Assembly: GCF_003018235.1 (NCBI RefSeq)
Contig: NZ_CP027437.1
Length of the DNA: 64,000 bases
Strand: one strand, 5' to 3'
Source: Escherichia coli
GTDB taxonomy: Bacteria; Pseudomonadota; Gammaproteobacteria; Enterobacterales; Enterobacteriaceae
In this document: one piece after another, positions 21,347 to 34,914 of the stretch
Layout: each line of letters begins with the position of its first letter
Numbering within the stretch: the stretch's first letter is position 1
Program-made: the position numbers and the translations under genes
Notes under the pieces: generated by a model
The model's input: the letters and a program-made list of their open reading frames with translations, nothing else
Told to the model about the DNA's origin: nothing
Databases searched by the model: none

Positions 21347-21876
21347 TGAACTGCACCCCAAATGTTGGACACAATCTGACATCTGAAGGTGCAGTTTATG
21401 AAACATTCATTTGAAGTAAAACTTGCCGCTGTAAATCATTACCTGGCCGGTCATGCAGGCATCATTTCTACGGCAAAACTCTTTCAACTTTCTCACACCA
21501 GCCTCTCACACTGGATTAATCTTTTTCTTCTTCACGGTCCTCAGGCACTGGATTGCAGACACAAGCGTAGCTATTCTCCTGAAGATAAACTTTGCGTGGT
21601 TCTTTATGCTCTCGGGCATTCTGAGTCTCTACCCCGGGTAGCTGCCCGGTTTAACATTCCCAGCCACAACACGGTTAAAAACTGGATAAAAGGCTACCGC
21701 AAATCTGGTAATGAGGCCTTTATCAGGCGCAGGAAGGAGAAAAGCATGACCCGTTCTGATGATACCCATGAAAACGAGGCAAACATGACGCCGGAAGAGA
21801 TGAAGAATGAGCTGCGTTATCTTCGCGCAGAAAATGCATATCTGAAAGCCATGCAGGAGCATCTCCTGGAAAAAAA

Positions 21877-22778
<902 letters not shown>

Positions 22779-24465: not shown

Positions 24466-25029
24466 TCACGATTGCATATTTTTAGTGAAGATTAATTTAT
24501 CCTCACCAACATCATAGTAATTGCGTATTATAGCTTCATTGATAAAGCCCTGTTTTGTATAAAATGCGCGGGTGGCACTAAAATCGACATAGCTGGAGGT
24601 CTCTACTAAAAGTAGTCTTGCGCAGGGAAAGGAGAACGCACTAATGACATGAATCGCTCCCCTGCGGCGACTCTTGTCATAAGAATGCCGGAGCGTTTTT
24701 CCATCAATTGCAATAACGTCTTTATCATCTGAAGAATGGCAGTCACGCATCCAGTTAATAAAGCACTCGTGAAATTTTGCAGGACTGATACAGGATACAA
24801 CTCTGGCAATGGTATCGTGAACAGAAATACCATTTTCAAAATCACCATATTGCTTCAAAAAATCGAGATGTGTTTCCCCAAAATCCTCTATATCTTCCCA
24901 GCCTTCTGCACCAGAAACAACGGCACAAATAGTCAACAGTAGAATATCAGACAATTTATATTCCACTTTCCAGGCTTGTCTGTAATCGGGGATAATAGAA
25001 ATATGTTCCATCAATTTTTTAAGTTCCAT
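24466..25029 (-). pseudogene. Truncated H-repeat (ISAs1-family) transposase N-terminus (~137 codons, 24619-25029) fused in frame to an unrelated ~50-codon 3' remnant
   Basis: [50 protein letters not shown]... matches H-rpt proteins up to ...AIHVISAFS, then diverges to ...[15 protein letters not shown]... (GNAT-like C-terminus). Confidence 0.75.
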
Positions 25030-25274: not shown

Positions 25275-25559
25275 TTAGACTTCTTCTATTTCATATTTTA
25301 TAGACAATTCATGAAAGGCAGTAAATACCAGTGAAAATAATTTATCTCTATCACTTCCATTTAAATTATTTACAATGAAAAAACCATCCTCATGATCTTC
25401 TATTGAAAAATCAATCCAGTTTGAATAACTAGATGGAATCCAAAGTGAACCATCAGTATTAATCCGAGAGGATGGTTGATTTTCTTTTATTCTCTCGACA
25501 ATAAAAGAAAGTAAATTATCTACTTTATCATCAACATGTATAATATATTCAACACTCAT
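25275..25559 (-). CDS. Putative immunity protein for the orphan Rhs toxin tip (94 aa)
   Basis: Small AT-rich ORF 12 nt downstream of the orphan rhs-CT; no recognisable domain. Confidence 0.55.
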   Translation of the reverse strand: MSVEYIIHVDDKVDNLLSFIVERIKENQPSSRINTDGSLWIPSSYSNWIDFSIEDHEDGFFIVNNLNGSDRDKLFSLVFTAFHELSIKYEIEEV

Positions 25560-25571
25560 TAATTTCTTGCC

Positions 25572-26024
25572 TTATGCGCCGCACCCATGGGCTCGCCCTC
25601 GTTTTGTAGGATAATCATTTGGATTCCTGATCCCTATGTGTGTTTCATTCGGATTAGTACTCGGAATGCCTCTGTCATTCAGAGGTACCTCACCGGGATC
25701 ATATTTATGCACATGTGCGTTAGCCCCAGACTTAGGTAATGGATCACCGTTTTTCATCGTCATACTTTGATTTCCATAGGGATCGACACGAACTTTAGAG
25801 CCATCAGCGTGACTCCATGTCTGATTCCCGGTACTTGTTTGTTTATCCAAATTGAATCCATTATCAGTAAGAATAGAACCTATTGCCCCTGGGGATCTTC
25901 CTTTTAATTGAGGCAAATCAGAGGCGGCACTTAATCCAAGAGGATCTATCCATCCAAGAGGGTTAGGCGCATAAGCATACAGGTTTAACCCACCCGCCAG
26001 CCCTATCGGATCAGTACACAGATA
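25572..26024 (-). other. Orphan rhs C-terminal cassette: core-end remnant (DPIGLAGGLNLYAYAPNPLGWIDPLGL) plus a distinct ~115-aa toxin tip; no canonical start codon
   Basis: Frame is open from the stop at 26027-26025; 25931-26010 is nucleotide-homologous to 27001-27080 of the main rhs; track ORF start is a non-ATG (TTG) codon. Confidence 0.75.
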
Positions 26025-26138
26025 TTACCACGTCTCGCAATCATAGTACCGGAACCGATGATAGTACAGTCCCGCGTCATGCTATTAAAGACAATGTAGT
26101 GCGATGATATGTGTCATCCCTCAATTATTTTTATAAAA

Positions 26139-26645
26139 TCATATATTATCTTCCTGTTGCAGGAATTGATTATAAAAAGATAGTTTTTTATCTAAAAATA
26201 AAAAGTGATACCCAACCGACTTTAGATCATTATTTATGACAGATAATAACTTATTCCATTCATAGATATATTTATATTTATTTACAAGCAATACACTTTT
26301 ACTAGAATTTAAATTAAAAAGTTCATCCGTGTTTATGGAGATCCATTTTGAAAAAATTTCAATATTCTTTTTATCTATTTTAACATCTAATAATACCGTA
26401 AAGGATTCACATAAGAAATTGCATTCAAAGTTAAACCCGGAGATGATACCATCAAGCATTTTGATAATATCATCAATGATTTCACTCAGGCTATTAAGTG
26501 TTAGTGAAATATGAACGCCATTCCAGTTTATATAAAAACACCCGGATGATATGGGATATGCGGAAAATATAGCCTCCGATAAATTAATATCCTCTTCATC
26601 CATGAGGCCTTTTTGATAAGTATCATCAATTTCTATTTTGAACAT
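26139..26645 (-). CDS. Putative Rhs immunity protein (168 aa from ATG at 26645)
   Basis: ATG lies 1 nt after the rhs TAA stop (TAATATG); AT-rich; position typical of rhsI. Confidence 0.65.
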   Translation of the reverse strand: MFKIEIDDTYQKGLMDEEDINLSEAIFSAYPISSGCFYINWNGVHISLTLNSLSEIIDDIIKMLDGIISGFNFECNFLCESFTVLLDVKIDKKNIEIFSKWISINTDELFNLNSSKSVLLVNKYKYIYEWNKLLSVINNDLKSVGYHFLFLDKKLSFYNQFLQQEDNI

Positions 26646-26646
26646 A

Positions 26647-29600
26647 TTACTTACCCTTTTCATAAATGGGGCCTGCTGTCGATGAATCAATTGGGAAACC
26701 GTGAAAAGTCCCATCCCCATTATTTCTGACCCGAATTTTATCCGGTTTAATAGGTACTCCATTTCCTCCGGGAATATAAACTTCACTCTTACTATTTTGA
26801 TTTATAGGAAAATCTTTCATCTCATCCGGTTTTAGCGTGGCAGCTTGTTCTCCAGCATATTTCAGATCATCCTTGCTTCTCCAAACTCCATGAGGATTCT
26901 TTTCTTTATCTGCAATTGCTTGAGCTGCGTTAGGATGTAGTTTCATCCCATGCCTTTTCCCTCTTGAGTAACCATTCTCGGCTTTTAAGCAGGTGGGATT
27001 TAATCCAAGAGGATCGATCCAACTTAAAGGATTCGGCGCATAAGCGTACAGGTTTAACCCGCCTCTCAGCCCTATCGGGTCCGTTACCATGAACCGCCCG
27101 ACATCCGGATCATAGTACCTGTGCAGATTGTAGTGCAGCCCCGTTTCCCTGTCGAGGTACTGTCCCTGGTAGCGCAGGTTCTGCTCCACCCCGCCGTGGT
27201 CCTTCTCCTGTATCGTGTTACCCCAGACCTGATACCCCGTCTCCCACACGATTTTCCCGTCACTGTCCGTCATCTCTTCCGGCGCGCCGTTCACATCCGT
27301 GTGAAAATACAGTATCCGGTTCAGGCCCTCTTTACCCACCTTATCCACCCGCGCCAGCGGTTCATAACTCCCCGGGTCGCTGTAGATATACAGGCTGCTT
27401 ATTCCCTCCGGCCTGCTCTCCTGCGCCAGCCGCATTCCGTCCCATAAAAATGTCGTCCGGTTGTACGGTTTACCGTCAGGGCTGATGTGCTGTTTTTCCG
27501 TCCGCCTCCCCAGCGCATCGTACACATACCGGTACGTTCCCCGCGCTGTCGTCACTTCCACCATCCGGTGTTCCGCATCATAACGGTAACTCTGCGTGCC
27601 GCTCCGGCCCTCCTTTTCCACCGCACGGCCAAATTCGTCGTAACGGTAGTGCACACCACGGTAAGACATCAGCCGGTTGAACGGCACCACGCTGTTTTCT
27701 GCCGTGGCCCTTTCCCCCGCGCGCCGCGCCAGCAGGTTTCCCGCCGCGTCGTACTCCCAGCTCGCCAGATACCCCTCATCCTCCGAGCGGCACGCCGTGA
27801 TGCGCCCCGTGGGGTCGTAGAAGTAATCCGTTTCCCCCCGCCGGCTGTGCCGCGTCTTCAGCAGTTCATCCTCGCCGCTGTAGCTGTACTGCCGGTCCGT
27901 GAACGTCTCCGGTACCACCCCGCGCATCCCGCTGTATGTCTCCCTGCGCTTCAGCCGCCCGGCGGGGTCATAAAGCTGCCGCGTGCTCAGTCGCCCCTGA
28001 CTTCTGAGCACTTCCCGGTGCAGGGCGTCACGTGTGAACTCGCTGATGACCTCCCGGTCCAGATTTATCTGCTGGAGATGGCCGCTGCCGTAGTACAGAT
28101 GACGCTGCGTTCTGCCGTCCGGAAAGGTGGTGGCTGTCCGGTTGCTGAGTTCATCGTACTGATGGGTCAGGACGCCCTGCGCCGTCTCCTCAGTCAGCAT
28201 CCGCCCCAGTCTGTCGTAACTGAAGCGGATAATCTCCGGTGCGTCCATTTCCCCGGCATCCGACCGTCGGCGGCGGATTTCCAGTAGCTGGTCTGCCGCA
28301 TCATGGACGTATTCCGTACGGCTATCGGCTGTCTCCTTTGCCGTGAGCCGGCCCGCCGCATCACGTGCCAGCCGGTGGCGGATTTCACCGCCCCGGTCCC
28401 CTGTGAACACCACTTCCGTGACCGCGTTCAGCACGTTGTAACGGTACGTCTGGCGGCAGCCGTCCGGATTTATCTGCTCCGCCAGACGGTCCAGCACATC
28501 ATGGCGGAACCGGTAGTTTTCTCCGTTCTCGTTCGTGAGCGTGACCAGACGCCCGTAAGCATCGTACCCGAACGCCGTCCTGCGCCCCGTCGCGTCTGTC
28601 CGGCTGCGCACCCGGCCCTGCCCGTCCCGCTGCCAGCGCGTTATCCTCCCCATCGGGCTGGTGTACTTCACGAGCCTGCCCGCCGCGTCCGACTGGTAAT
28701 TCACCGTGCGGCCGTCCGCCAGTATCACCTCCGTCAGGTGGCCGCTGTCGTCATACCCGTAGCGCGTGCTGTGGCTCTGCGCGTCTGTCATCCGTATCAG
28801 CCGCGTGCGTTCGTCGTAGAACCAGGCCGTCTGCGAGCCGGAACAGTCCGTGTGCCGCATGAGCTGTCCGTCTTCGTTCCACTGAAGGTATTTATTCCCC
28901 CCGCGCGCATCCGTTATCTGCACCACCTGACCGTGGCGGTCATACTGATACCGGGTGTTCTGCTGCAGCGGGTCGGTCACCGCAAGAAGATTGCCGCGTT
29001 CATCGTACTCACAGCACCAGCTGTTCCCCGCCGCGTCCACCTCCGTTTCCGGCTGGTGCCACACCGGGTGCCACTGTGTCTGTGCCACCCGCCCCAGCGG
29101 GTCGTGCGTCTCCGTGATATGCCCCTGCCGGTCATACACATAGCGCCATTTGCCGCCCTGCGCATCGGTCATTCCCAGTAACAGCCGTTCTTCGTCGCTC
29201 CAGCGGAACGTCGTCACCTGCCCGGCTTCGTCCTGGTACGCCGTCACCTGGTTCTGCGCGTCCCACTGATGATAACGCGTGCGCCCCAGCCCGTCCGTCA
29301 CGCACAGCCTGCGTGCCGCGAGGCTCCACGCCAGCCGGTACTGTTCACCGCTGTCCGTGTGGTGCCCCGTCACCCGCCACGCTGCGTCATCCGGGCCTTC
29401 ATACCAGCCCCACTGGTAATAATACCCTTCGCCGCCCGGCTGGCGGTGCAGGGTCATGCAGTGGTTTTCGTCGTAAGCAAACTCGCGCAGCAGGTGCCCC
29501 GTGCTGTCGTACACGCCGTTCAGGTCGCCGGCCTCGTCATAGCGGTAACGACGCAGCAGTAAAGGAGCCGTCTCAGGGAAATGCTGATAAATCTGTGTCA

Positions 29601-31311
29601 CCCGCCGGGGATGCGCCGCCAGTTCATAATGCAGACGGATGCACGGACGCTGCTGTTCACCGCTGATTTGCGTGATGCGTCCCCGGTCGTCGTAGTACAG
29701 ATTCAGACAGTTGCTGTTGCGGTCGCCCAGCATTTTCAGCCGCTGGCGCTGCGGGTGACGCGGGTCGGCCTCAAACAGAAAAAACTGCCCGTCATCGCTG
29801 CTGATAAGCCAGTGCCCCTGCTCACCCCGCCGTACTGCCAGTCCTTCGCCGGGGCTGTAAAACCCGCTCCCCGGCAGCACGGCCTCCATATCCAGACGTC
29901 GTCCCATGCCCGACACAAAGGTCATACAGTTTTCGTCAGCAGTACCCGGCGTGCGCTCGAGGCTGACTTCATACATCACGCTCCAGCCCTGCCCGAACAT
30001 CCCTTCCGTGCGGTCGTCACGACTGCTGTACACGCGCTGCCAGTCCAGCGGAAAGTGGCCCGGCAGACTGAAATCGAAGTCATCGTCATCCGCCAGATAT
30101 TTGGCTCCGGTGGCGGCATTGACCGGATGCGGAAGGGCACTGATGGCCTTCTGCGTCATCACCCCCATCCCGACACTGGCAGCAAAACAGGCGATTTTAG
30201 AAAGCATTTTGCCCGGGCGAAGAAACATCAGCGCCACGGTTGCCACCAGGGTTATCTGCGACCTGCCGCTTCTGATATCCCTGACCACCAGTAACGGACC
30301 GCCAATGCGGACATCCGGTGACACAAACGCCCCGTTCCCCGGCTCATTCACCACCCTGGCCTCGCAGGTACAGCGTGCCCCGCTGCGCGCCGCCGGCTGG
30401 CTGTTGATACGCACATCCCGCGCGCCTTCCGCGATATATTCCGCTGCGGGCGGTTCATCATCGCCTTTGAACAGATTACTGATGCTGCCAATAACCGCAT
30501 TCACTCCCTGAAAGGCGGTTTCCAGCATACCGCCCGGACTCAGCAGGTTAAGGGCCGTTCCCAGAGGGTCATCCAGAAAGGCGGCTTTTTTTTGTGCGAG
30601 AAACTGCGTCAGTGAGGAGGGATGTTTATGGCAGTCGATTTTATCGTCAGGGGTCGGGGTGGAGCCCGGGGCCGCACTGGCCACGGTGGGCTGCCATAGT
30701 TCCGACACAAAATGTGTCACGCCATCCACCATTTCAGAACGCCCTTCTTCCGTACTGAGCTGGTCATGCAGCGCCCGGGACATCAGCACAGGCCCTGTCA
30801 CCGGGTTAACCGCCAGGGCTATGGCCCCCGCCATTTCCAGATATTCCCCGGCCACATCCCGGAACGTTCTGGCGTCCTCCTGACGCTGCGCTTCTTCCTG
30901 TTCCGCCTTCGCCTGTGCCTCCTGCGCCTCAATGTCCTGCCGCGATGCCGCAGTCGCCGCGGCCCGCGCGGCAGGTTTGCTGTTGATCCATGTGTCGCCA
31001 GAGCCGGTGAGGATGTAACCTTCAATCTGAGGCGGGAAAAGCCAGTTCGCCAGTTGCTCACTTTCCCTACTGATTCGGTCATTCCAGCCCTGATACGACA
31101 TAAATACCGCTGTTGCTATACCGATCGCTAAAATGGTTGAGCAGCCCAGCGTTGCCACTTCAACTCCGCCCAGCGCCGCCATGGTTCCGACAACCAGAAC
31201 ATCCACCAGGGCTGTGGCGGCAACCTCTACAACTGCCCCCAGCACATCTGCCATAAACGACGTATGCAGCAGGGCATCACCCTGCCTTGCCGCCCAGAAT
31301 GCCTCTTCCAT
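26647..31311 (-). CDS. Rhs-family polymorphic toxin / T6SS effector (1554 aa): prePAAR motif, N-terminal TM region, PAAR region, YD-repeat shell, PxxxxDPxGL, ~110-aa C-terminal toxin tip of unassigned family
   Basis: N-terminal AARQGDALLH motif; hydrophobic segment ADVLGAVVEVAATALVDVLVVGTMAALGG...; two PAAR tetrapeptides; numerous YD repeats; DPIGLRGGLNLYAYAPNPLSWIDPLGL before the tip. Confidence 0.9.
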   Translation of the reverse strand: MEEAFWAARQGDALLHTSFMADVLGAVVEVAATALVDVLVVGTMAALGGVEVATLGCSTILAIGIATAVFMSYQGWNDRISRESEQLANWLFPPQIEGYILTGSGDTWINSKPAARAAATAASRQDIEAQEAQAKAEQEEAQRQEDARTFRDVAGEYLEMAGAIALAVNPVTGPVLMSRALHDQLSTEEGRSEMVDGVTHFVSELWQPTVASAAPGSTPTPDDKIDCHKHPSSLTQFLAQKKAAFLDDPLGTALNLLSPGGMLETAFQGVNAVIGSISNLFKGDDEPPAAEYIAEGARDVRINSQPAARSGARCTCEARVVNEPGNGAFVSPDVRIGGPLLVVRDIRSGRSQITLVATVALMFLRPGKMLSKIACFAASVGMGVMTQKAISALPHPVNAATGAKYLADDDDFDFSLPGHFPLDWQRVYSSRDDRTEGMFGQGWSVMYEVSLERTPGTADENCMTFVSGMGRRLDMEAVLPGSGFYSPGEGLAVRRGEQGHWLISSDDGQFFLFEADPRHPQRQRLKMLGDRNSNCLNLYYDDRGRITQISGEQQRPCIRLHYELAAHPRRVTQIYQHFPETAPLLLRRYRYDEAGDLNGVYDSTGHLLREFAYDENHCMTLHRQPGGEGYYYQWGWYEGPDDAAWRVTGHHTDSGEQYRLAWSLAARRLCVTDGLGRTRYHQWDAQNQVTAYQDEAGQVTTFRWSDEERLLLGMTDAQGGKWRYVYDRQGHITETHDPLGRVAQTQWHPVWHQPETEVDAAGNSWCCEYDERGNLLAVTDPLQQNTRYQYDRHGQVVQITDARGGNKYLQWNEDGQLMRHTDCSGSQTAWFYDERTRLIRMTDAQSHSTRYGYDDSGHLTEVILADGRTVNYQSDAAGRLVKYTSPMGRITRWQRDGQGRVRSRTDATGRRTAFGYDAYGRLVTLTNENGENYRFRHDVLDRLAEQINPDGCRQTYRYNVLNAVTEVVFTGDRGGEIRHRLARDAAGRLTAKETADSRTEYVHDAADQLLEIRRRRSDAGEMDAPEIIRFSYDRLGRMLTEETAQGVLTHQYDELSNRTATTFPDGRTQRHLYYGSGHLQQINLDREVISEFTRDALHREVLRSQGRLSTRQLYDPAGRLKRRETYSGMRGVVPETFTDRQYSYSGEDELLKTRHSRRGETDYFYDPTGRITACRSEDEGYLASWEYDAAGNLLARRAGERATAENSVVPFNRLMSYRGVHYRYDEFGRAVEKEGRSGTQSYRYDAEHRMVEVTTARGTYRYVYDALGRRTEKQHISPDGKPYNRTTFLWDGMRLAQESRPEGISSLYIYSDPGSYEPLARVDKVGKEGLNRILYFHTDVNGAPEEMTDSDGKIVWETGYQVWGNTIQEKDHGGVEQNLRYQGQYLDRETGLHYNLHRYYDPDVGRFMVTDPIGLRGGLNLYAYAPNPLSWIDPLGLNPTCLKAENGYSRGKRHGMKLHPNAAQAIADKEKNPHGVWRSKDDLKYAGEQAATLKPDEMKDFPINQNSKSEVYIPGGNGVPIKPDKIRVRNNGDGTFHGFPIDSSTAGPIYEKGK

Positions 31312-31329: not shown

Positions 31330-31782
31330 TTAATTCGTCCCGGCTTCCTGCCGCATCCTGAAGCGCAGATTCTTTTTAATTTCAGCCCAGCGCGTCATAT
31401 CTGCCGGGGTCAGCGGTGTGGTTCTGGCGTAGGTGAAGGCCATCATGACCCGCTCACCCGGCAATACAAATGCCACCTGACACTGGTACACCTGCTCGTT
31501 ACCCCGGAGAAACTGGCTCTGTATTTCCAGTCCTTCTTCACCGTCATTAATCCCCACCCGTGTTACCTGAACGGGCGTGTAGTGAAGATCCTTTACCTGT
31601 TTCTCCAGTTTTTTCATTTGCTGTTCAATCTGGGAGGCTAATTCGTCTCCTTCCTGCATCTGGCCCCGGCTGATAATGAGTGCAGCGTCGGGATCGCTGA
31701 GGCGCAGCATATTAATAGTACTGTCCTGAATAATATTCCCGGAAAAAGTTACAACAGTTTCATTGAGATAATACTCCGTCAT
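31330..31782 (-). CDS. DUF1795/Eag-family chaperone for the prePAAR effector TM domain (150 aa)
   Basis: Size and position between vgrG and the prePAAR rhs match Eag chaperones; family assignment is by context and recall, not by search. Confidence 0.65.
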   Translation of the reverse strand: MTEYYLNETVVTFSGNIIQDSTINMLRLSDPDAALIISRGQMQEGDELASQIEQQMKKLEKQVKDLHYTPVQVTRVGINDGEEGLEIQSQFLRGNEQVYQCQVAFVLPGERVMMAFTYARTTPLTPADMTRWAEIKKNLRFRMRQEAGTN

Positions 31783-33763
31783 AATGATATGAGTCCTTTT
31801 AAATTAATAAATTATTTAATGATGGTTTTTGTTTATTTTTTAGTCATGAAGGCGACATCTATCGCCAATTGAAGGGCTGTTTTTTCCGATGTTCCAGGCG
31901 GAAGTATATCTGCCGCCCTGTTATTCATATTTAAATCAAGCTGACCTGATTGTGTATTTATCTTTCCATTTTCTGTTGCAGTAATATTAAAATTCTTACA
32001 GGTTATATTAAATATTCCGTCACTGGTCATTTGCAGGATAGTGTTCCCACAACTAAGAATTATGGAATCTCCCGCAGCAAGGCGTAAATTCTGTACGGCC
32101 TGAATCGTTTTATTTTGTCCGGCAAGGGAGGTATCATCCATCTGAACTGTAAGAGAACGTTCCTCACCAATTATCGCTGTTTCTGTTTTATCAATGACTT
32201 TAAGGCGATTATTGCCCACCCAGTGGCTTTCATTATTATTTACTTCAATCCGCTGATCTTTTTCGGCATGTAGCCAGACCTCTTCACCGCCAGGTTTATC
32301 CTCAAAACGTAGTGCGTTGGCATTGGTTGGGCCGCCGCCGATAGTGTGACTGTAAAATCCGCTTTGCGTCGCTGCGCCCGGTAGTCCCCACGGTGGCATG
32401 GTGTCCTGGTTGTAGGTACGCCCAACAATTATCGGTAAATCCGGATCACCGTTTTTGAAATCCACCAGTACTTCCTGACCAATGCGCGGGATCTGAATGC
32501 CACCGAATCCTTTACCCGCCCACGGATAACTGACACGGACCCAGCAGGAACTATTTTCGTCATTCTTACCGTAACGATCCCAGCCAAACTGAACTTTCAC
32601 CCGGCCATATTTATCTGTCCAGATTTCCTGCCCTGCCGGGCCGGTGACGATGGCGCTCTGCGGGCCTTTAGTGTGGGGTTTGCTCAGGGTTCGTTGTGGG
32701 CGGTAAACTTCGCTGGTGGGATGCAGTTCAAAGCTGGTTGAGTAAGAGAAATGCTGCTCCTGGCCGCTGTGTTGCGCATTGTCCTGTATAAATAGCGTGG
32801 TCTGTACCAGCAGATATTCCCGGTTCACTTCGGCTGTCGGATAGTTTTCCAGGATGAAGGTAAAACCTGTCATCAGGGTACGAATATTGCCGCTGCCCTG
32901 TACCCGACTACCTGGGCTACGCTGTTCTTCCATGCGAATGCGTGTCAGCATTTCACCTTCACTCTTTGTGAAGTAATCTCCCGGCCATTCGTAGTGCTCA
33001 TATTCAGCAAGGCCGGTTTCACGCGGATTAGCCACGGTGCTCTTCAGCAGTGAACGCGGCTTCATAAAGTCGAAATCATTCAGCACCCACTGTCCACTGC
33101 GCAGACTTTCATTTGCTGTGATGGTATGGATAAACTCCTTGTCCAGTTTCAGCCCTTTCTGGTAATAACACACCAGCGGCGAATCTGCGCATGCCTTGTG
33201 GACATTAATGGCATCAGCCAGCACTAACGTGTGACTGTTCTCGCTGTGCTCAAACCACCAGTAGATACCCCACTCCTGCATCAGGCGCTGAACAAAATCG
33301 AAATCTGTTTCACCGTACTGCACCTGCCAGGCGCGAGTCGGATAATTTTCCACCAGTCGTTTTTCCACTGGCCAGGGGTACTCATCCAGTACCTCATCCA
33401 GGATCTCCACCACGTTTTTATTCTGAAACGCTTTGTAGTCACTAGTGTGGGTCAGTATTTTTAACCACGGTTCGAGCCGCAGTTCATACACCACCGAACG
33501 TCCTTGATGACCAGCCACGCGTGCCGCCGTCACCAGCCCGCTGATATAACGTTTTCCGCCGCCATCCAATTCGATATTGACGCACAGATCTTTGCCCACC
33601 ATCGGTTTGAGCTGCAGGTTGGCTGCGGGGGAAACATAGCCCAGGTTCAGGATGTCAGGAGTTTTTAATTTAATAGAATAAGTAAATAGTTCCCCTACTG
33701 TTTCTGTACCCCCTAAGCTTGCAAACAGTAACATGATCCTACCCACGTAATGTGGACACGGCC

Positions 33764-34618
33764 CTAAGCGAGATTATGGTTTTCAAATTGTTCCGGGCTG
33801 AGACCGCCACAGGCACTGTGACGACGCCAGCGATTGTAATCACTCTCGATATAATTAAACACCGTTGCCCGCATTATTTCCCGGCTGCTAAAGCGTTCCC
33901 CGTGGATACATTCCACCTTCAGCGAATGAAAGAAGCTTTCCACACAGGCATTGTCATAACAGTAGCCTTTCGCACTCATACTGCCACGCAGGTTGTGTCG
34001 CTTCAGCATTGCCTGATAATCCCCTGAACAGTATTGACCACCACGGTCCGTATGAACAATGACGTTTTCCGGGCGTCTTCTCCGCCACAACGCCATTTGC
34101 AGTGCATCACAGGCCAGTTGTGCTGTCATTCGCGGTGACATCGACCAGCCAATGACGGCGCGTGACCACAGGTCGATGACTACTGCGAGATACAACCAGC
34201 CCTCATCGGTACGCAAGTACGTGATGTCACCCGCCCACTTCTGGTTCGGGCCACTGGCGCTGAAGTCCTGCTCCAGCAGATTCTCCAATACGGGCAGGCC
34301 ATGTGCACGGTAGCTGACCGGGCTGAACTTCCGGCTGGCTTTCGCCCGCAGCCCCTGACGACGCAGGCTGGCGGCAATGGTTTTAATATTGAACTCCGGC
34401 AGTTCGTCAGCAAGGCGGGGAGCACCGTATCGCTGCTTTGCCTCAAAGAATGCCTTATGGACAGCGGCATCGCAGGTGAGCCGAAACTGTTGGCGCAGGC
34501 TCATCTGGTGACGACGCCTGAGCCAGACATACCAGCCGCTGCGGGCAACCCGAAGTACACGACACATCGCTTTGATGCTGAACTCTGCCCGATGATTTTC
34601 GATGAAGACATACTTCAT
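33764..34618 (-). CDS. insF: IS3 transposase OrfB (DDE integrase core; made by -1 frameshift from OrfA)
   Basis: rve-domain sequence ...[34 protein letters not shown]...; overlaps orfA end. Confidence 0.9.
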
Positions 34619-34914
34619 TTCAGGCGCTTCGCGAAGTATGTCGCGGCCTTTTGGAGGATGGCCAGTTCCTCAGCCTGCTCCGCCAGTTGTCGTTTAAGGC
34701 GGACATTTTCAGCGGCCAGTTCGCTTTCGCGCTCTGACGAACTCATTTGTTGCTGCTGTTTACTGCGCCAGGCATAAAGCTGAGATTCATACAGGCTGAG
34801 TTCACGGGCTGCGGCGGCCACACCGATGCGTTCAGCGAGTTTCAGGGCTTCGTTACGAAATTCAGGCGTATGTTGTTTACGGGGCTTCTTGCTGATTGAT
34901 ACTGGTTTTGTCAT
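34615..34914 (-). CDS. insE: IS3 transposase OrfA (99 aa)
   Basis: [52 protein letters not shown]... Confidence 0.9.

Follow-up and report, generated by a model that had tools for sequence, protein, structure and literature searches.

A window of 64,000 nucleotides (nt) of Escherichia coli DNA (contig NZ_CP027437.1, assembly GCF_003018235.1), which is the whole stretch analysed here, carries on its minus strand an rhs effector gene that is followed, after a single nucleotide, by a small gene encoding a putative immunity protein. Comparison with homologues supports a start of the immunity gene at the ATG at 26645-26643, yielding a protein of 168 amino acids, and not at the GTG at 26786, from which a mechanical list of open reading frames (ORFs) derives a protein of 215 amino acids. 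In the explanation that we consider highly probable, the region represents the 3' end of a PAAR-Rhs effector operon, which encodes a likely ribonuclease (RNase) as toxin tip and a 168-residue immunity protein translated from ATG 26645.

Start of the immunity gene

On the minus strand the junction reads ...GAA AAG GGT AAG TAA T ATG TTC AAA ATA GAA..., with one spacer T at 26646 separating the rhs stop codon TAA (26647..26649, minus strand; identified from the sequence, the ORF list and the translation) from the ATG. The frame opened by this ATG comprises 168 codons and ends with the TGA at 26141-26139. In the mechanical list, the same region appears as an ORF of 215 amino acids with a GTG start (26139..26786, minus strand), next to the 1554-residue rhs ORF (26647..31311, minus strand). 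This list takes the first ATG, GTG or TTG following a stop as the start codon, which is why the ORF begins at GTG 26786. The 47 extra codons (26646..26786, minus strand) correspond to the +1 frame of the toxin 3' end, and we regard them as a spurious extension that is non-coding in that frame, judging from substitutions, frame identities, the lack of a Shine-Dalgarno (SD) sequence and the lack of homologues covering it. An earlier note on this DNA had described the rhs stop, the one-nucleotide spacing and the ATG opening the 168-residue frame, and all of these coordinates hold on the minus strand. It had further judged that the 215-residue ORF starts inside rhs and is too long, an interpretation that is supported by the homologue N-termini, the substitutions, the SD sequences and the public records alike.

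When the 215-residue form was used as query, only three clusters at 90% identity were retrieved, from E. coli and Salmonella. All of them consist of 168-residue proteins that cover the last 78% of the query, and the 215-residue form is absent from public records, in which the exact 168-residue protein occurs on 39 contigs. With the 168-residue form as query, a full HMMER scan covering 1.84 billion representatives detected 102 relatives, mostly 150-180 amino acids long (median 171), and most of them align residue 1 to residue 1. The second residue, Phe2, is conserved in at least 90% of the members of a 68-sequence immunity alignment; 45 of 104 immunity sequences open with MF, and several others carry the Phe one residue further on (M-x-F). 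A structural model built on the 68-sequence alignment (predicted local distance difference test score, pLDDT, 95.8) places residues 2-6 in a predicted beta-strand of the fold.

A stop codon in the extension frame was sought in the close relatives and none was found, the frame being open for 52 codons in E. coli, Salmonella and the metagenome contig L009. Because the extension frame is open in these relatives, we turned to codon-position analysis and to more distant homologues, and these settled the start. Two of the distant homologues have much shorter open frames upstream of the ATG: in L010, where a full-length Rhs locus has 26 nt between stop and start and an AAAGGTG of its own, 16 codons only are open and the protein begins with MFKMEI, and in L013, where the N-terminus is MFKII, 7 codons only are open.

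Within the 141 nt shared by rhs and the extension, 10 of the 13 changes that distinguish the window from Salmonella fall on the third codon position of rhs (P = 0.0016), as do 25 of the 36 changes relative to L009 (P = 1e-5). This position is the second one of the immunity/extension frame, where each change alters the amino acid, and because the changes concentrate there, selection acts on the toxin frame only. Identical residues number 44/46 (Salmonella) and 36/46 (L009) in the toxin frame of the overlap, and 33/47 (Salmonella) and 21/47 (L009) in the extension frame.

Inspection of potential ribosome binding sites points to the same ATG. An SD-like AAGGG lies within the last rhs codons, which encode Lys-Gly, 8 nt before ATG 26645 (26654..26658, minus strand), and pairs with the anti-SD sequence at a calculated -4.5 kcal/mol, while no such pairing is obtained for GTG 26786 (+0.7 kcal/mol). 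The AAGGG is kept in Salmonella and in the E. coli orphan copies, and L009 carries AAAGG at the same position.

The correction of the start is a routine gene-start call, and public pipelines already call the 168-residue form and need no correction. For expression or rescue work on the immunity gene, the 168-residue protein should be used.

The rhs-immunity junction and alternative readings

A lone stop-N-ATG arrangement proves nothing by itself. However, the arrangement recurs as TAA-T-ATG in E. coli (window and orphan copies), as TGA-T-ATG in Salmonella, again as TAA-T-ATG in L009 and as TAG-T-ATG in Chryseobacterium oryctis (L016). Since the one-nucleotide junction is shared by four independent contexts, among which three different stop codons are used, it is conserved and not a product of chance. 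The start thus lies within a few nucleotides of the upstream stop and this is kept among relatives, the exceptions being L017 with a 4-nt spacer and L010 with its spacer of 26 nt. In the enterobacterial copies, the SD sequence resides in the last Lys-Gly codons of the toxin.

This geometry fits both SD-led initiation and coupling by termination and re-initiation. The AAGGG inside the last rhs codons would serve the immunity start, and the ATG beside the rhs stop would also allow ribosomes terminating on rhs to re-initiate; under such a re-initiation model, toxin synthesis would always be accompanied by synthesis of the immunity protein. The arrangement resembles that of translationally coupled operon genes in that a single nucleotide separates stop from start and the SD sequence lies within the last codons of the upstream gene. 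It differs from them in the 4-nt and 26-nt spacers of some homologues, and coupling is read here from geometry only. The conserved junction offers a convenient natural case for asking whether synthesis of the toxin is stoichiometrically coupled to that of the immunity protein.

Alternatively, translation could start at ATG 26645 independently of rhs, through the gene's own SD sequence and perhaps from a transcript initiated at an internal promoter, and the one-nucleotide junction would then reflect compact packing with no coupling function. We consider this reading rather unlikely, but several observations speak for it. Besides the SD sequence of the immunity gene itself, these are the 26-nt spacer and separate AAAGGTG of L010, the 4-nt spacer of L017 and the Chryseobacterium copy, which has no SD sequence at all. 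In addition, a consensus scan detected a promoter-like TCGACA-17-TACAAT inside the rhs core (27127..27155, minus strand), some 50 nt ahead of the DPIGL motif. As a candidate internal promoter from which toxin tip and immunity gene could be transcribed, it serves as a positional lead only, as the site counts returned by the promoter and terminator scan for this region do not exceed those of shuffled sequence. For Salmonella, PMC7043789 documents internal promoters from which toxin tip and immunity gene are expressed without reliance on the main promoter of rhs. The legend of its S6 figure annotates one of these, P2, together with a PxxxDPxGL motif, which suggests that P2 lies at about the same place as the site at 27155-27127. 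On the other hand, the one-nucleotide junction is kept in four lineages, and across phyla too, while the stop codon changes. Moreover, an internal transcript would still lead to translation of the toxin-tip ORF, and coupling and independent initiation are not mutually exclusive.

The following points weigh against the explanation given at the outset. Given the promoter-like site inside rhs, expression of the immunity gene may not require translation of rhs. The frame upstream of ATG 26645 extends over 52 stop-free codons in E. coli, Salmonella and L009 and contains in-frame ATGs at 26762 (GGAGG, at 2-nt spacing) and 26663. Two GenBank records use the 174-residue form that starts at the latter. 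Finally, the toxin assignment draws on a predicted structure with a Foldseek E-value of 0.25 and has no match to Pfam, the bacterial RNase A family included, or to PDB chains.

Regarding the second and third points, initiation 6 codons upstream at ATG 26663 would yield a protein of 174 amino acids (MKRVSNMFKIE...) and a 17-nt overlap with the end of rhs. This ATG is in frame in the present strain and is preceded by a weak CAGG (-3.4 kcal/mol), and it is the start from which the two GenBank records call the protein. However, the corresponding codon is TTG in Salmonella and in the E. coli orphan copies and TTA, which is no start codon, in L009; the N-terminus MF(K/E)I of the family with its conserved Phe2 speaks against the longer form; and substitutions across the extra codons follow the rhs frame. 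The 174-residue protein is very unlikely to be the principal product, but could be made as a minor alternative in this strain. Least probable of all, to the point of being scarcely credible, is a genuine long form of 215 (GTG 26786) or 207 amino acids (ATG 26762) overlapping the last 120-140 nt of rhs: the 52 open codons shared by all close homologues, for which nucleotide shuffling gives a chance of 2.8%, and the GGAGG just before ATG 26762 speak for it, but an open frame of at least 47 codons is kept in 29-44% of synonymous re-codings with the toxin amino-acid sequence fixed, ATG 26762 is forced by Asn-Gly codons of the toxin and its GGAGG sits at a spacing of merely 2 nt, GTG 26786 has no SD sequence, changes gather on the second codon position of the extension, no homologue covers the extension, and L010 and L013 do not have it. 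The length of the open extension frame is hence unsurprising and the 2.8% obtained by shuffling is misleading.

Toxin tip and immunity protein

The toxin tip (C-terminal domain of Rhs, Rhs-CT) comprises 117 amino acids (26650..27000, minus strand). It has no match in Pfam or NCBIfam, even at E = 10, and a profile search of all PDB sequences yielded no related chain. Its homologues form only 11 clusters, from Pectobacterium, Chryseobacterium, Flavobacterium and other Bacteroidota. In the toxin alignment (A1), D64, R91, R93, T99 and H101 are among the invariant residues, H18 is near-invariant and H23 is not; the signature motif of the family is RVRNNGDGTFHGFPI. The toxin was modelled with a pLDDT of 89.4, and the model displays a predicted RNase A-type fold. 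In a Foldseek search with this model two bacterial toxins ranked first, with template modelling (TM) scores of 0.51-0.53 and an E-value of 0.25, which is not significant. A barnase/RNase Sa type had been guessed from the R-x-R...H motif; the fold search gave no support for this and pointed to RNase A-like toxins. We conclude that the tip is most likely an RNase with an RNase A/EndoU-like fold, as predicted from the model.

The closest comparison is CdiA-CT of Yersinia kristensenii, a proven RNase of RNase A fold (PMC5435912) that has also been linked to EndoU (PMC7297114). Its residues His175, Thr276 and Tyr278 are candidate equivalents of H18, T99 and H101 of the toxin. The toxin differs from the CdiA-CT/CdiI system of Y. 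kristensenii (PDB 5e3e, Pfam PF18431) in lacking detectable sequence similarity and any Pfam match. In the family of the present toxin, moreover, a His of the C-terminal strand is invariant (T-F-H), at a place where CdiA-CT, aligned by eye, has T-x-Y/F. With regard to the bacterial RNase A family, the N-proximal His pair proposed for that family is not conserved here, as the behavior of H18 and H23 illustrates. A rather unlikely alternative is that the likeness in fold is superficial and that the toxin acts on a target other than RNA. In its favor, matches at the sequence level are lacking, Foldseek gives an E-value of 0.25, identity to 5e3e_B is just 9-13%, and the residue pairings are tentative. 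In favor of an RNase stand the predicted fold and the two toxins that ranked first in the fold search.

The orphan toxin of two E. coli drafts (L005 and L007) has suffered a 90-nt in-frame deletion that removes the invariant RVRNNGDGTFHGFPI segment. Beside it, both the TAATATG junction and the gene for the 168-residue immunity protein have been preserved intact, a constellation of disabled toxin and retained immunity. In L008, the core remnant carries a stop codon.

The immunity gene (26139..26645, minus strand; 168 codons plus TGA, true start at ATG 26645-26643 as judged from homologues, substitutions and public records) encodes a protein that likewise lacks matches in Pfam and NCBIfam even at E = 10. 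No consistent Pfam family was found among the 68 members of its alignment, and sequence and profile searches of the PDB returned no meaningful relative. It is an alpha/beta protein, by prediction, of 168 amino acids and unrelated to CdiI of Y. kristensenii, which has about 100 residues. Its assignment as immunity protein rests on linkage. A toxin homologue and an ORF of the immunity family are adjacent in the main rhs gene of E. coli, in the Salmonella orphan (L001-L004), in the metagenome Rhs loci L009 and L010 and in Chryseobacterium (L016; hidden Markov model E = 5e-52). Thus, a small ORF on the same strand directly downstream stays with the same toxin tip across unrelated contexts, and this conserved adjacency in five different contexts argues for a cognate immunity protein, which would neutralize the toxin.

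In L013 and L016, both Bacteroidota, the immunity homologues reside in runs of small unannotated genes resembling immunity-gene arrays, and the run in L016 adjoins fragmented YD/Rhs-like pieces, which suggests that the toxin-immunity cassette circulates in Flavobacteriia as well as in enterobacteria. A 125-amino-acid gene following the immunity homologue of L013 was considered as a toxin in reversed order and ruled out; it looks like another gene of an immunity array. The immunity homologue of L017 (L017:3617-3670), also from Bacteroidota, has apparently been annotated with too late a start in the public record: 18 codons before that start and 4 nt beyond the stop of the toxin lies an in-frame ATG from which translation would give MFEI..., the N-terminus of the family.

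The toxin-immunity pair is uncharacterized and rare. Tentatively, and with somewhat less than even confidence, it may constitute an undescribed family in which an RNase with RNase A/EndoU fold has His residues in the N-proximal segment and in the C-terminal strand, a His...His layout like that of vertebrate RNase A and unlike that of CdiA-CT of Y. kristensenii. The immunity fold would have no solved relative, and the cassette would move between Enterobacteriaceae and Flavobacteriia with its one-nucleotide junction kept. In any case, one further pair is added to the very large known class of Rhs toxin-immunity pairs. The value of this is modest and lies in the fact that both proteins fall outside the annotated families; the toxin may also provide one more example of the layout of catalytic residues in bacterial toxins of RNase A/EndoU fold.

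Locus architecture and distribution

The rhs gene (26647..31311, minus strand) is full-length and encodes 1554 amino acids plus stop, as established from Pfam matches and translation; the exact protein is found in the public E. coli record WP_249926946.1. Pfam detects a PAAR_motif (3.7e-8), DUF6531 (3e-19), RHS_repeat (2.9e-78, in 12 stretches) and the RHS core (1e-14). The end of the core, read from the sequence as DPIG-x18-DPLGL, spans residues 1411-1437 (27001..27081, minus strand), with DPIG at 1411 and DPLGL at 1433-1437 separated by 18 residues. In characterized Rhs proteins, the DPxG-x18-DPxGL motif marks the boundary between core and toxin as well as the site of self-cleavage. At this point the GC content drops from 0.615 in the N-terminus and core to 0.413 in the toxin tip, and it reaches 0.276 in the immunity gene, compared with 0.493 for the whole window. 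The AT-richness of the immunity gene relative to the rhs core, to which the earlier note had also drawn attention, is thereby borne out.

Directly upstream of rhs lie a gene for a DUF1795/DcrB-family protein of 150 amino acids (31330..31782, minus strand; Pfam PF08786 DcrB, 9e-19) and vgrG, encoding a type VI secretion spike protein of 637 amino acids (31833..33746, minus strand; Pfam Phage_GPD 3e-97, Gp5_trimer_C and Phage_base_V). By family and position, the 150-residue protein corresponds to the Eag-type chaperones of PAAR-Rhs effectors and may act as such. The domain set of the Rhs protein, the terminal core motif with the accompanying GC drop and the two upstream genes identify the locus as a standard module of vgrG, putative chaperone, PAAR-Rhs and immunity gene belonging to a predicted type VI secretion system. 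Because it is flanked by narV, yddE, nhoA and yddH, it occupies the E. coli rhsE site.

Directly after the immunity gene follows an orphan Rhs module (25275..26090, minus strand; delineated by sequence and ORFs). It consists of a degenerate core remnant (…GLYYHRFRYYDCETW*YLCTDPIGL…WIDPLGL) with an in-frame TAA and then DPIGL...DPLGL, succeeded by a different and unrelated toxin tip of about 120 amino acids (to 25572; GC 0.445). An AT-rich ORF of 94 amino acids (25559..25275; GC 0.274) begins 12 nt further on. Neither of the two proteins has a match in Pfam or NCBIfam. The module ends with a hairpin and T-run that is terminator-like by eye only, and the terminator scan did not report this hairpin.

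In its overall organization the locus conforms to the main and orphan Rhs/RhsI modules of Enterobacteriaceae (Poole et al. 2011, PMC3150448; Koskiniemi et al. 2014, PMC3967940; Starsta et al. 2020, PMC7043789). Shared features are the GC-rich PAAR-Rhs core ending in DPxG-x18-DPxGL, the variable tip of lower GC content, the small AT-rich immunity gene that directly follows on the same strand, the preceding vgrG and DUF1795 genes, an orphan toxin/immunity module lying farther downstream, and the presence of the same module as an orphan in Salmonella. In contrast to the known systems, the toxin tip and its immunity protein are uncharacterized and lack a match to any annotated family, and the module is missing from all of the 5,426 complete E. 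coli genomes searched, in which only the end of the rhs core and the downstream remnant find matches. It is, however, carried by draft E. coli genomes. The housekeeping flank of the locus is at most 97.6% identical to any complete E. coli genome searched.

Several mobile elements were noticed in the vicinity. An element of the insertion sequence (IS) family IS3 at 33764-34914 (minus strand), composed of a 99-residue ORF and a 284-residue rve integrase ORF, ends 18 nt upstream of the vgrG start and may cut the vgrG-rhs operon off from its native promoter. Between yddE and nhoA, two ORFs of 176 and 240 amino acids in overlapping frames occupy 21389-22746 (plus strand). In E. coli records that match here, the region is annotated with an IS3-like IS1397 transposase, which suggests that the ORFs may represent IS1397. 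Finally, the distal end of the rhs locus harbors an ORF of 187 amino acids (24466-25029, minus strand) with a DDE_Tnp_1_assoc domain, i.e. the N-terminus of an H-repeat/ISAs1-type transposase, which appears truncated; a truncated H-repeat-type transposase at the distal end is classic for rhs elements.

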